Source of the DNA: Candidatus Hadarchaeales archaeon
GTDB taxonomy: Archaea; Hadarchaeota; Hadarchaeia; Hadarchaeales; Hadarchaeaceae
DNA length: 64,000 bases
Direction: 5' to 3'
NCBI GenBank assembly: GCA_038872135.1
Contig: JAVZGN010000003.1
Location: 1-64,000 of the forward strand
How positions within the stretch are numbered: position 1 is the stretch's first letter; each line of letters begins with the position of its first letter. The translations under genes and the position numbers were made by a program. This document shows positions 640 through 33,364 of this stretch, piece after piece. Below the pieces are notes generated by a model. The model was not told the origin of the DNA. It did no database searches and saw only the letters and a program-made list of their open reading frames with translations.

Positions 640-2555
640 GATAACGCCCTCAAGCTTATTTTTTCATCGTATTCCTTCCTTTCCCGGAACTCCTCCTGTT
701 TTCCTGTGTGCCAGTTTTGAACTGGCCTGTAGTATCCAACTATCCTCGAGTAGACTTCCGCTGGCTCCCCACATCTGGGGCAGTTGAAGTGCTCCCCGCT
801 CAAGTAACCATGGTTCATGCAGATCGAGAAAGTTGGGGTAATCGTGAAATAGGGTAGCCTGAAGTTCTCGGCAATCTTCCTCACGAGGAGCCTGCATCCC
901 TCAGAGCTGCTCACAGCCTCTCCAAGAAAAACATGCAATACCGTCCCCCCATTGTATAGAACCTGAAGATCATCTTGGTGTTTTAAGGCTTCAACAACAT
1001 TGCTGGTATATCCCACAGGGAGGTGAGTGGAATTTGTGTAGTATGGGACCTTTTTCCCGGCTGTTATTATCTTGGGATAGCGCTCTTTATCCAGCCTCGC
1101 CAGGCGGTGGGAAGCGCCCTCTGCAGGTGTAGCCTCCAAGTTGTAGATGTTCCCCGTTTCATTCTGGAATTCCACCAGCTTTTCCCGCATGAACTTAAGC
1201 ACCTTTATGGCGAACTCTTTCCCATCATTCGTCTCAATGCCTTTCCCGAGAAAGTTGAGGCAGGCCTCATGCATCCCCACTAGGCCTATGGTGGAAAAAT
1301 GAAATTTTAGAGTTTTTAAATAGTGAGCAGAGAAGGGAAGGAATCCTTTTTTCATGTTTTCCTCCACCAGCTTCCTCTTTATCTCGAGGCTCTTTTTTGC
1401 CAACTCCATCAGGCGCTCCAAACGCTCGAAAAACTCGCTCTCTTCCTTGGAGAGGTAGCCGATTCTCGGCATGTTGATGGTAACTACTCCAATGGACCCC
1501 GTCTTGTCAGCGTAGCCAAAGAAGCCACCATATCTCCGGTGGAGCTCGCGGAGGTCGAGCAAAAGCCGGCAACACATCGATCTGACCTCCCTTGGATCTA
1601 TCCCTCCTTTGATGCAGTTCTGGAAATATGGAACACCAAATTTTGCGGTCGTCTTAAACAGAAGCTCTGAGACATCGGAGTCCCAGTCAAAGTCCTTTGT
1701 TATGTTGTAGGTAGGGATTGGGAAGGTGAAAATTCTTCCGCGCATATCTCCTTCATACATCACATCCAGAAAAGCCCGATTTATGAGGTCAACTTCTGGC
1801 TGGTAGTCTCCATAGGTATCATCTGTTGGTTTTCCTCCATAGATGACGGGCTCATCCTTCATATCCTCGGGCACCTTGAGTTCAAATGTGATGTTTGTGA
1901 ACGGCGTTTGCCCTCCCCATCGAGAAGAGATGTTCAGGTTGTAAATGAACTCCTGCATTGCCTGCTTAACCTGCCTGTAGCTCAGACCATCTTTTCTTAC
2001 GAAGGGGGCGAGGAAGACATCCGGGCTGTTTACAGCCTGAGCCCCAGCCCATTCATTTTGCATTGAGCCGAGAAAATTTGAGATCTGGAGGAGGGCCGAT
2101 GAAAAGTGCTTTGGCGGGGAAGACTCGGTTTTTCCTGGGATGCCACTGAAGCCGTTGAGGAGAAGGTCCCGGATGCTCCATCCCGCGCAGTAGCCGACTA
2201 TTCCAAACTGGAGGTTGTGAATGTGAATGTCGCCGTCTATGTGAGCTCTGGCGATGTCTTTCGGGTAGATTTTTGATAGAGTGTACCTTGCGATCATCTC
2301 TCCTCCAGCCTGGAGCAGCAGTGATGAGAATGAGTAGGAGATGTTCGCATTCTCTTTGACCCTCCAGTCCCGGATGCCAATATAATCATCGATGAACTTC
2401 TCAGGGTCTATAAGATGGTGGTCCCCTTTCGGCGCTTCCTTTGTCTTGATGGAAACCTTCCAAAGGCATTTCGGGCAGCTGGCGTAGTACTTCCCTTTCC
2501 CCCGGTAGTTCCAGGAGTAGCCGCAGTGCCTGCATTTAAGCCACATCACTTTCAT
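636..2555 (-). CDS. nrdD: Class III anaerobic ribonucleoside-triphosphate reductase, no ATP cone, N-terminal CxxC..CxxC Zn ribbon
   Basis: YCAGWS, finger loop SMCCRL, LEATPAEG, C-terminal CxxH..CxxC and glycyl-radical motif SRIVGYYRP; followed by nrdG. Confidence 0.96.
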   Translation of the reverse strand: MKVMWLKCRHCGYSWNYRGKGKYYASCPKCLWKVSIKTKEAPKGDHHLIDPEKFIDDYIGIRDWRVKENANISYSFSSLLLQAGGEMIARYTLSKIYPKDIARAHIDGDIHIHNLQFGIVGYCAGWSIRDLLLNGFSGIPGKTESSPPKHFSSALLQISNFLGSMQNEWAGAQAVNSPDVFLAPFVRKDGLSYRQVKQAMQEFIYNLNISSRWGGQTPFTNITFELKVPEDMKDEPVIYGGKPTDDTYGDYQPEVDLINRAFLDVMYEGDMRGRIFTFPIPTYNITKDFDWDSDVSELLFKTTAKFGVPYFQNCIKGGIDPREVRSMCCRLLLDLRELHRRYGGFFGYADKTGSIGVVTINMPRIGYLSKEESEFFERLERLMELAKKSLEIKRKLVEENMKKGFLPFSAHYLKTLKFHFSTIGLVGMHEACLNFLGKGIETNDGKEFAIKVLKFMREKLVEFQNETGNIYNLEATPAEGASHRLARLDKERYPKIITAGKKVPYYTNSTHLPVGYTSNVVEALKHQDDLQVLYNGGTVLHVFLGEAVSSSEGCRLLVRKIAENFRLPYFTITPTFSICMNHGYLSGEHFNCPRCGEPAEVYSRIVGYYRPVQNWHTGKQEEFRERKEYDEKISLRALS

Positions 2556-2644
2556 TTACTACCTACCTACATAAATATCTTTCGAGGGTGGTGAAAACTG
2601 AGTTATCTTTTTACCCTCCAGAACAAATGGTAATATGCAATGAA

Positions 2645-2927
2645 GGGACAGCCCCGCAGGAATCGAGAGCTGGCGTGAAATCCATGAACGCCGGTGCATC
2701 ACTGCGGGAACACTGGAGCTTCCCACCGAGAGTTCACGCCACTCAACGGGTCCTCTGGGGAGAAAGTGGCGGAGCGTCTATCGATGACCCGAGAGCCAAC
2801 CCTGGTGTGAAACAGGTGGGGGCCCCCGAGAAAATCCCGCCATCGAGGGTTAGCGGGATGAGTAATGCCGGTTCGGCTTTCCAAGATTCCCGCTGTTAGT
2901 TGTGCCGGGGACATCGGGGGCCACTTT
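2645..2927 (+). ncRNA. Candidate large structured non-coding RNA, family unknown
   Basis: About 61% GC by hand count (2641-2920) in an intergenic gap. Complementary segments include 2671-2679/2733-2741, 2821-2829/2914-2922, 2834-2840/2853-2859, 2747-2752/2786-2791 and 2659-2664/2885-2890. An AT-rich TATA-like element lies upstream at about 2603-2613. Confidence 0.55.
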
Positions 2928-2938
2928 ACCCAAATAGA

Positions 2939-3361
2939 TTATGGCCGGTGCTTTTTCACCAACCTTACCTTTACGTGAAGGACATCGTCAGCGTCCAGCA
3001 GAGTAAGCCTCCCAAGGCATGCTTTCTGTTTGTCAAATCTAAGATAAATCGTATTTGATCTATCCATAGCTTCTATTTTTCTCGCCACTGTTTCAAGTCC
3101 CCTTTCGTCCAGCTTTCTGATGATATCGTCAAACCAACTCTTAGCGATTTTCCTCCCGCGAGCCTCGGCCGAAAAAATTATTATCGGATTTTTGTGATAT
3201 CCCTCCACCCTCTTTTTGACTATGTCGACGCCTTCCGGAAGGAGCAACTGCATGGCATTCATCACTTTGTTTTCATCCTCAGTGGCATGACAGAAGGTTT
3301 CGAGCCTCACGAAGATAGCATCGTAGTCATCGATGTTGGCCATGTGCCTGCTATCTCCCAC
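2939..3361 (-). CDS. RNA-binding protein, archaeal exosome/RNase P-associated family (COG1325-like)
   Basis: FCHATEDENKV, GYHKNPI and YLRFDKQKA motifs. Confidence 0.85.
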   Translation of the reverse strand: MGDSRHMANIDDYDAIFVRLETFCHATEDENKVMNAMQLLLPEGVDIVKKRVEGYHKNPIIIFSAEARGRKIAKSWFDDIIRKLDERGLETVARKIEAMDRSNTIYLRFDKQKACLGRLTLLDADDVLHVKVRLVKKHRP

Positions 3362-10341: not shown

Positions 10342-10435
10342 TGGGGTCGCCGGGATTTGAACCCAGGTCACCAGCTTTTCTGCGCCTTTCGGCGTCCCAA
10401 AGCTGGCAGGATAGACCAAGCTACCCCACGACCCC
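10342..10435 (-). tRNA. tRNA-Pro(TGG) with 19-nt canonical 37/38 intron
   Basis: Cloverleaf GGGGTCG..CCAGC TTTGGG[ACGCCGAAAGGCGCAGAAA]A GCTGG..GGTTCAAATCC..CGACCCCA; no encoded CCA. Confidence 0.95.
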
Positions 10436-33205: not shown

Positions 33206-33364
33206 TGGCGCCGGGGGGAGGACTCGAACCTCCGACCGCTCGGTTGCTGCATCCGGAATGGTCAGCCTTCAGAGATGGAGGCTCGCTCTTCATCCGCTCC
33301 CGGTTTTAACAGCCGAGCACTCTACCTACTGAGCTGTCGGGCCACCCAAAGGTGGAACCCCGGC
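33206..33364 (-). tRNA. tRNA-Asn(GTT) with two introns (8/9: 33336-33356; 37/38: 33245-33306)
   Basis: Removing the 21-nt and 62-nt segments gives an exact 76-nt cloverleaf GCCGGGG TA GCTC..CTCGG CT GTT AA CCGAG..GGAGG TTCGAGT CCTCC CCCCGGC G CCA; both junctions form BHB motifs. Confidence 0.88.

Follow-up and report, generated by a model that had tools for sequence, protein, structure and literature searches.

The 64,000-nucleotide (nt) stretch analysed here, hereafter the window, covers positions 1 to 64,000 (forward strand) of contig JAVZGN010000003.1 in assembly GCA_038872135.1 of a Candidatus Hadarchaeales archaeon. Close to its start, a 383-nt gap between nrdD and a small PF01877 gene holds a conserved structured RNA element of ~290 nt (about 2636-2927, plus strand), which is very probably a guide small RNA (sRNA) of the archaeal box H/ACA kind with three hairpins. 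The core of the element has a G+C content of 60.8% versus 50.3% for the genome, and an AT-rich spacer of 80 nt separates it from nrdD. A TATA-like box, CTTTTTAC, stands upstream (Table 1), and comparable AT-rich boxes occur at the same distance in most relatives with a full upstream flank; by the TATA-to-start spacing usual in archaea, transcription would start near 2636-2638.

The plus strand folds at −123.7 kcal/mol, a value that 3 of 200 shuffles reached (z −2.45); the minus strand, at z −1.43, does not stand out from its own shuffles. Neither of the two overlapping open reading frames (ORFs; 103 amino acids (aa) on the plus strand and 71 aa on the minus strand) had a match in a Pfam search. 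Among 52 homologues, variation by codon phase was 0.295/0.283/0.296 (permutation p 0.91), showing no three-base periodicity, and 459 of 489 indel runs relative to the window were not multiples of three. Long stop-free stretches (median 90 aa) run along the minus strand of these homologues; because phase periodicity is absent and the indels are out of frame, they are taken as compositional rather than coding. A sequence-only reading of this DNA had described a GC-enriched gap without a credible ORF, which these results bear out, the 103-aa frame showing no sign of being conserved as protein.

Conservation and covariation of the element

A BLAST search against 40 relatives found homologues at 68-80% identity. 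The window and 21 of these homologues were aligned by MAFFT (alignment A1, 22 sequences), and the covariance model built from A1 matched 56 of 65 genomes of the order, nearly always over the full length (E from 1e-38 to 1e-77 for full-length matches). The order makes up the whole class, so that a class-level search covered the same 65 genomes. One genome (G012) has two full-length copies (C5:61425-61716 and C19:10330-10620; 288.8 and 275 bits).

On A1, the three-hairpin H/ACA structure leaves 83.1% of cells paired and shows both-side changes in 36 of 73 pairs, scoring 0.271 versus 0.110 for the best slid control. On alignment A2, consisting of 42 covariance-model matches (41 distinct), 88.7% of cells are paired, 50 of 72 pairs are changed on both sides and the score is 0.414 versus 0.093, although these counts are inflated because A2, like A3, was fitted to the proposed structure. 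The pairings of the sequence-only reading reach 73.6% on A1, with 21 of 68 pairs changed on both sides and a score of 0.144 versus 0.080 for the slid control. That reading had nevertheless been right to see a real, conserved and structured non-coding RNA on the plus strand, divergent from nrdD, as covariation, occurrence in 56 of 65 genomes and the fold z-score all indicate.

Of its individual helices, the one formed by the 3′ tail (UCGGGGGCC/GGCCCCCGA) is real (89.4% paired on 22 sequences, 98.1% on 42), as is the apical GCCG/CGGC helix. The two closing stems are complementary in the window, but only 60.4% and 58.8% paired in relatives (22 sequences); since they are unsupported, the tail helix is nested and the pseudoknot once seen in it disappears. 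Two further helices, AUCCCGC/GCGGGAU (63.8%) and CUCUG/CGGAG (63.6%), are not kept in relatives, nor is the CAUCGA arm of a supposed CAUCGA/UCGAUG loop-loop contact. A 12-base-pair (bp) helix retains only its 6-bp core GGCGUG/CACGCC, which links the upper stem of hairpin 1 to the lower stem of hairpin 2 through the 5′ strand of each; this core is incompatible with two covarying H/ACA stems and may be a transient alternative pairing. Likewise, CGGGUC/GACCCG (83.8% paired) survives only as a possible alternative conformer of hairpin 2. The second loop-loop option, AGGGUU/AACCCU, is a real complementarity, of the 5′ guide of hairpin 3 with the 3′ guide of hairpin 2; it follows from the two ribosomal RNA (rRNA) targets proposed below and calls for no explanation beyond them.

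Three hairpins with H/ACA features

Each hairpin is built of a lower stem (P1), an internal-loop pocket, an upper stem (P2), a kink-loop (K-loop) or kink-turn (K-turn) with tandem GA, and an ACA box (Table 1). Below, pairing and both-side changes refer to 42 sequences and motif counts to 52, and position n of the RNA equals window position 2639 + n. In hairpin 1, P1 is 98.6% and P2 93.4% paired, with compensatory changes, and each GA is found in 51 sequences. P2 of hairpin 2 shows both-side changes in six of seven pairs, and the 5′ GA of this hairpin is present in 51 sequences. In P2 of hairpin 3, five of seven pairs changed on both sides. Overall, 51-52 of the 52 sequences have the tandem GA, apart from the 5′ GA of hairpin 3, which is shifted by one alignment column in 18; the ACA boxes of hairpins 1, 2 and 3 occur in 50, 52 and 44.

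These dimensions were compared with those in excerpts of published work. According to these, an archaeal H/ACA hairpin consists of an upper stem and a lower stem, the latter of 7-9 bp, on either side of an internal-loop pocket (PMC4652768). The lower stems here span 7, 8 and 9 positions, with a single mismatch in the longest, and every stem covaries. From P2 to the ACA box the distance is 15, 16 and 16 nt, or 14-15 nt if counting begins at the guide base that is the first to pair with the predicted target; the range from upper stem to ACA in the same kind of excerpts is 14-16 nt (PMC4652768, PMC7991803). A K-turn or K-loop with tandem sheared G.A is placed 5-6 nt above the pocket (excerpted text of PMC7991803). 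Such an element is present in each hairpin here, above upper stems of 6 bp plus one variable pair (hairpin 1) or 6-7 bp (hairpins 2 and 3), thus slightly long at the upper bound.

Table 1. Positions of the features of the element and its surroundings (window coordinates; RNA letters for the element)
Feature	Position	Strand	Details
Hairpin 1	2653-2712	plus	P1 2653-2659/2702-2708; P2 2670-2675/2689-2694; ACA 2710-2712
Hairpin 1 guides	5′ 2660-2669; 3′ 2695-2701	plus	pocket strands GAAUCGAGAG and UGCAUCA
Hairpin 1 stems			lower CCCGCAG/CUGCGGG; upper CUGGCG/CGCCGG; A-ACA after
Hairpin 1 K-loop	2676-2688	plus	U-GA-AAUCCAU-GA-A
Hairpin 2	2733-2814	plus	P1 2733-2740/2804-2811; P2 2753-2759/2788-2795; ACA 2812-2814
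Hairpin 2 guides	5′ 2741-2752; 3′ 2796-2803	plus	pocket strands ACUCAACGGGUC and CCAACCCU
Hairpin 2 stems			lower UUCACGCC/GGUGUGAA, then ACA; upper CUCUGGG/CCC(G)AGAG
Hairpin 2 K-turn	GA 2760-2761; bulge GAU 2783-2785; GA 2786-2787	plus	apical stem above, 2768-2771/2775-2778
Hairpin 3	2835-2913	plus	P1 2835-2843/2902-2910 (C.C mismatch); P2 2852-2858/2888-2894; ACA 2911-2913
Hairpin 3 guides	5′ 2844-2851; 3′ 2895-2901	plus	CGAGGGUU and GUUAGUU, near invariant
Hairpin 3 stems			lower UCCCG-C-CAU/GUG-C-CGGGG; upper AGCGGGA/UCCCGCU; U.U pair above
Hairpin 3 K-turn	GA 2860-2861; bulge CAA 2882-2884; GA 2885-2886	plus	apical stem GCCG/CGGC 2867-2870/2874-2877
Hairpin 2 outer helix (P0), 5′ arm	2722-2727	plus	CCCACC; pairs with 2815-2820
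Hairpin 2 outer helix (P0), 3′ arm	2815-2820	plus	GGUGGG; directly after ACA
Hairpin 3 outer helix (P0), 5′ arm	2821-2829	plus	GGCCCCCGA; pairs with 2914-2922
Hairpin 3 outer helix (P0), 3′ arm	2914-2922	plus	UCGGGGGCC; A and oligo-U tail after, to 2927
Terminal K-turn (Kt0), 5′ strand	2636-2646	plus	C-stem UGC 2636-2638; bulge A-A-U 2639-2641; sheared GA 2642-2643; NC-stem GG 2645-2646
Terminal K-turn (Kt0), 3′ strand	2713-2721	plus	NC-stem CU 2713-2714; GA 2716-2717; C-stem GCUU 2718-2721
TATA-like box CTTTTTAC	2607-2614	plus	26-33 nt upstream of AUGA
nrdD	636-2555	minus	PF13597, E 1e-196
PF01877 'RNA_binding' small gene	2939-3361	minus	

Outer helices and a terminal K-turn enclose the ACA boxes

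Hairpins 2 and 3 each lie inside an outer helix (P0) whose 5′ arm sits 4-5 nt upstream of the lower stem. P0 of hairpin 2 has 93.9% of cells paired and both-side changes in all six pairs, and that of hairpin 3 has 98.1% of cells paired and both-side changes in seven of nine. The ACA box of either hairpin faces a purine-rich linker of 4-5 nt (GAGAG and GAAAA in the window), and in many relatives a short T run follows immediately 3′ of the outer helix of hairpin 3. In five of the 52 homologues (L031-L034 and L036; family f2) the ACA column of hairpin 3 is empty, the lower stem nearly abutting the outer helix, so that this hairpin is without ACA yet clamped.

Around hairpin 1, the invariant AUGA and the GA of the linker between hairpins 1 and 2 can form a C/D-like K-turn (Kt0). 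Its GA is present on the 5′ AUGA side in 52 of 52 sequences and on the linker side in 51. In the C-stem, pairs -2:79 and -3:80 are 100% paired and -4:81 is UA in 24, GC in 8 and UG in 5; the NC-stem pairs G6:75 and G7:74, directly after the ACA box of hairpin 1, are also 100% paired, and the bulge is N-A-U. Formation of Kt0 demands that the RNA start at about 2636-2638, in agreement with the placement of the TATA-like box. The outer helices and Kt0 thus put each ACA in a small internal loop: all three boxes are unpaired, yet the 3′ arm of P0 or the NC-stem of Kt0 begins at once after them.

To examine the occurrence of this arrangement elsewhere, species genomes were scanned with the guide words of hairpin 3 as a pattern, giving at least 120 matches, many of them chance bacterial ones. 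Among the matches listed were records of Hadarchaeota/Hadesarchaea, several Halobacteria, and single records of Methanothrix, ANME-2 and Methanobrevibacter; 16 archaeal loci were picked from these by title and examined, leaving 13 further haloarchaeal matches aside. In four Hadarchaeota records and one titled Hodarchaeaceae, sequences upstream and downstream of the hairpin pair at −18.2 to −22.6 kcal/mol. Six other archaeal hairpins with an H/ACA fold reach only −4.7 to −10.7 kcal/mol, the downstream letters noted being a free, mostly T-rich tail. The remaining five of the 16 (Geoglobus, Acidilobaceae and three others) have no H/ACA fold and were set aside as chance matches. The record titled Candidatus Hodarchaeaceae archaeon (L170) holds a copy near-identical to that of relative G005, with the clamp of Hadarchaeota type; the taxon of its title may not match the affinity of the sequence.

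The novel part of the element is that every ACA box is enclosed by an outer helix or a K-turn, an arrangement that covariation supports well and whose function is only predicted. The clamped architecture was not found in the literature examined, a non-exhaustive set in which the structure figures of Pab40 and Afu4 could show related extensions, nor in the six H69-guide hairpins from outside Hadarchaeota. It is conceivable, at slightly short of an even chance, that Hadarchaeota carry a clamped multi-hairpin H/ACA guide in which ACA is locked in an internal loop (hairpins 2 and 3) or beside a C/D-like K-turn (hairpin 1). If so, the PUA domain of Cbf5 would read an internal ACA, or the clamp would position Cbf5 instead, and the particle would consist of four L7Ae on three Cbf5 modules.

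Predicted targets in 23S rRNA

The 23S gene of the window's own genome ends at a contig end (model position 2480 of 2987; the last ~500 nt absent), so the 23S and 16S sequences of relatives with the same RNA were used, and the targets predicted for hairpins 1 and 2 come from genomes of the same genus. Escherichia coli numbers of all target sites are those we take from the E. coli sequence, and we infer an offset of 92 to P. abyssi numbering. Of a 13-mer scan, exact matches only were used, one-mismatch matches being noisy. Under a strict pocket rule (pairing from the top of the pocket) nothing convincing appeared in the own 16S or partial 23S; the own site in helix 69 (H69) was found without that rule. 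Complementarity in two parts, as in H/ACA guides, was found for hairpin 3 with H69 (6+6 bp, or 4+8) and for hairpin 2 with the A loop (7+4-7 bp), and is ambiguous for hairpin 1.

For hairpin 3, UAACUA-UA-ACCCUC in the H69 loop is the top 23S match in three of three relatives with a 23S gene and is also present in the own 23S. Hairpin 3 is thereby predicted to guide U1917 and, in a second register, possibly U1915. For hairpin 2, the A-loop site AGGGUUG-UU-CGCCC (U2554/U2555) ranks first of 799 and first of 765 uridines, which makes U2554/U2555 the predicted targets, possibly along with U2586, whose site GGGUU-UA-GACC pairs at 5+4 bp here and better in genus g15 (5′ guide GCGGUC, 6 bp). At guide position 108, the window, G001 and G003 have C, and the facing 23S base is G in G001, G002 and G003, which belong to the window's genus; in genera with A at that place in 23S, position 108 is U.

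Hairpin 1 would guide either a U2613-equivalent (GGAUGC-UA-UCUU; 5+4 bp, first rank in two of two genomes) or a U2496-equivalent (UGC-UA-C-CUCGAU; 3+6 bp). The guides of family f2 (CGAAAGG and GCAUCG) fit the U2613-like site at 7+5 bp, and those of genus g15 (UCGAGG and GCAA) fit the U2496-like site at 6+4 bp. In the window's family, the 5′ guide suits the U2496-like site and the 3′ guide the U2613-like site.

The rRNA genes themselves have some peculiarities. In the own 23S (G000:C26:7578-10982, about position 2100) an insertion of ~850 nt starts directly after the ACCCUC of the H69 site, and the own 16S gene spans 2401 nt for a model of 1478 positions. The 23S of G002, G003 and G028 has C at the presumed E. 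coli A2503 (CUCGCUG instead of CUCGAUG), and that of G028 is without U at the 2496-equivalent.

Relation to HgcG and other known guides

At Rfam gathering thresholds, four transfer RNAs (tRNAs) were the only matches in the 64-kb window, no family reaching its cut-off in the element region. With E-value reporting on 2500-3050, the best match was RF00064 HgcG (plus strand, 2603-2918, full model), at 22.4 bits and E 3e-4 against a gathering cut-off of 77. The sequence-only reading had named a significant Rfam hit as the end of any novelty; by E-value the hit is significant, but in bits it falls far short of the cut-off, which makes the RNA a distant relative or analogue of HgcG and not a member by the Rfam rule. 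Over the whole 1.08-Mb genome the element is the top HgcG match (E 1.4e-4), the next having E-values of 0.5 and 6.3, and in 12 of 18 loci from relatives HgcG matches at the corresponding place (18-31 bits), as the sole recurring family. The former of the two weaker matches (G000:C2:6819-6899, minus strand, locus L002; 10.9 bits) may be a single-hairpin H/ACA sRNA or noise. We conclude that the RNA is a distant, sub-threshold relative of HgcG that is conserved throughout the Hadarchaeota genomes examined, of a known kind and not a new class.

HgcG comprises Pf7, Pab40 and Afu4 of Thermococcales and Archaeoglobus, which likewise carry three H/ACA hairpins on one transcript of ~280 nt. Stem-loop 69 of 23S, the predicted target of hairpin 3, is also that of Pab40 motif 3, and a long 5′ guide strand with two competing folds, as in hairpin 2, is described for Pab40 motif 2 (excerpted text of PMC2377435). 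AACCCU is common to the HgcG consensus GGGuAACCCu and the 3′ guide of hairpin 2. By the offset of 92, the first position proposed for Afu4 motif 2 equals the A-loop site of hairpin 2; Muller et al. preferred another site, equal to U2586 by the same offset (both from the same excerpts, PMC2377435). To the site of Pab40 motif 1 (the U2496-equivalent by that offset) the 3′ guide of hairpin 1 fits poorly, with 3 bp. Further differences are that the ACA boxes, all three enclosed here, are not followed by any helix in the Rfam consensus structure, and that a terminal C/D-like K-turn is present here.

In Haloferax volcanii, sR-h45 makes both H69 pseudouridines with one hairpin through a single pocket and a UNUN sequence (excerpts of PMC7075261); hairpin 3 here also has two possible registers, and sR-h45 has two hairpins rather than three. 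Haloarchaeal records among the matches listed carry the guide words GAGGGUUA ... GUUAGU ... ACA, the same as those of hairpin 3; in the three of these records examined ACA lies in a free 3′ tail and the upstream/downstream duplex has −4.7 to −10.7 kcal/mol, versus −18.2 to −22.6 in Hadarchaeota. Pab21 (RF00065) resembles the element in joining an H/ACA guide and a C/D-type element in one RNA (PMC4652768, PMC2377435; excerpts). In Pab21 the H/ACA motif comes first and the C/D sRNA follows it, whereas here the C-like AUGA and the D-like NNGA flank hairpin 1 and close a K-turn only.

A box C/D sRNA was considered and rejected. Such RNAs carry boxes C (RUGAUGA), D (CUGA) and C′/D′, and a 2′-O-methylation guide upstream of D or D′. 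Present here are only AUGA(N)GG and NNGA, which form the terminal K-turn; C′/D′ boxes and a methylation guide were not seen in the RNA, with no separate C′/D′ scan made, and the Rfam scans of the region reported no box C/D family.

Expression, machinery and proposed mechanism

In a sediment metatranscriptome, a 232-nt contig identical to 2722-2923 was found at depth 48, with zero depth at the flanks 2400-2639 and 2928-3100, including the 5′ end of nrdD. One read pair from a hot-spring metatranscriptome maps to ~2688-2910 with its first mate on the minus strand, the usual sign of plus-strand RNA in most stranded libraries. The confinement of depth to the element and the TATA-like CTTTTTAC upstream agree with the independent transcription proposed by the sequence-only reading. 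Exactly at 2722, where P0 of hairpin 2 begins, the sediment contig turns back on itself (2722-2751), which could be an assembly artefact or hint at a processed 5′ end.

The own genome encodes Cbf5 (TIGR00425, 459 bits), Nop10 (79.5), Gar1 (44.3) and L7Ae (108), all above curated cut-offs. Under the proposed mechanism, the lower stem and ACA box of every hairpin would recruit one set of Cbf5-Nop10-Gar1, and its K-loop or K-turn would bind L7Ae. The two pocket strands would base-pair with the 23S rRNA sequences flanking a uridine, and Cbf5 would isomerise that uridine to pseudouridine. The clamps might stabilise and protect the RNA and possibly recruit a fourth L7Ae.

Weighing the alternatives

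A number of observations weigh against a three-hairpin H/ACA guide. The pseudouridines and the ribonucleoprotein are predictions, and an ACA box followed at once by a helix departs from the canonical single-stranded 3′ tail, so that acceptance of such an ACA by Cbf5 would be hypothetical. The AU-rich H69 site ranks only 2-3 of 799 by duplex energy in G010 and outside the top 6 of 765 in G013; in G004 an A facing G breaks the guide-target covariation of hairpin 2; and both candidates of hairpin 1 score near the noise of the scan, leaving no convincing single target. To these are added the truncated own 23S, the inflated pair counts on A2 and A3, the low HgcG score and an HgcG alignment that matches hairpins 1 and 3 to hairpins 1 and 3 of the model and leaves the middle hairpin unaligned. 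Finally, contigs cannot show the ends or strand of an RNA, the evidence on strand being the single read pair.

An H/ACA-like fold that does not guide the predicted rRNA sites, and serves tRNA or messenger RNA (mRNA) targets or acts as a non-catalytic chaperone of rRNA folding, would make sense of the ambiguous target of hairpin 1, of ACA boxes each inside an internal loop, where the clamp might block loading of Cbf5, and of the five homologues in which the ACA column of hairpin 3 is empty. We consider it improbable, given that hairpins 2 and 3 have guides that hardly vary and are complementary to 23S sites of universal importance, that the same H69 guide words and fold recur in the haloarchaeal records examined among the matches listed (Natrinema, Halolamina, Natronomonas), and that a Haloferax H/ACA hairpin has been shown to guide the H69 pseudouridines (excerpts of PMC7075261). 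The ribozyme-like or new large structured RNA class with a pseudoknotted core suggested by the sequence-only reading could appeal to the absence of any Rfam family above its gathering score and to an RNA that is long, GC-rich and strongly conserved, and it is nonetheless very improbable. With the closing stems so poorly paired no pseudoknot is left, the conserved single-stranded elements are all ACA boxes, tandem GA of K-turns or guides complementary to rRNA, and HgcG is the only recurring family match, so that three hairpins with H/ACA hallmarks take the place of a new class.

Least probable of all are readings in which the minus strand carries a 5′ leader or riboswitch for nrdD, or in which either strand encodes a small protein. 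The element does lie directly upstream of the minus-strand nrdD, and the minus-strand frames are open over long stretches, but codon-phase periodicity and Pfam matches are absent and the indels are mostly out of frame. Moreover, the minus-strand fold is unremarkable, the K-turn, ACA and guide motifs are legible on the plus strand only, the AT-rich spacer intervenes, and RNA depth over the 5′ end of nrdD is zero.

As a three-hairpin H/ACA guide, the element is a useful and mildly unusual finding. It shows that curated cut-offs in family-level search miss a conserved guide of rRNA modification across a whole archaeal class, which the covariance model could annotate in 56 of 65 species genomes. 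For this uncultured lineage, pseudouridines are predicted in H69 and in the A loop, both of them 23S sites central to ribosome function. Its enclosing helices and terminal K-turn bear on how strictly the PUA domain of Cbf5 needs a free ACA tail, a question already posed by published evidence that typical guiding can do without the ACA box (excerpts of PMC7075261).

Additional RNA features

Two observations from the Rfam searches concern other RNAs. In relative G008, ~160 nt upstream of the RNA, snoZ267 (a C/D-box small nucleolar RNA) matches at L010:1275-1345 on the minus strand with 31.3 bits versus a cut-off of 43, and may be a neighbouring C/D sRNA. In the window, the lengths of two tRNA matches on the minus strand, 94 nt (10342-10435) and 119 nt (33217-33335), suggest archaeal tRNA genes with introns.

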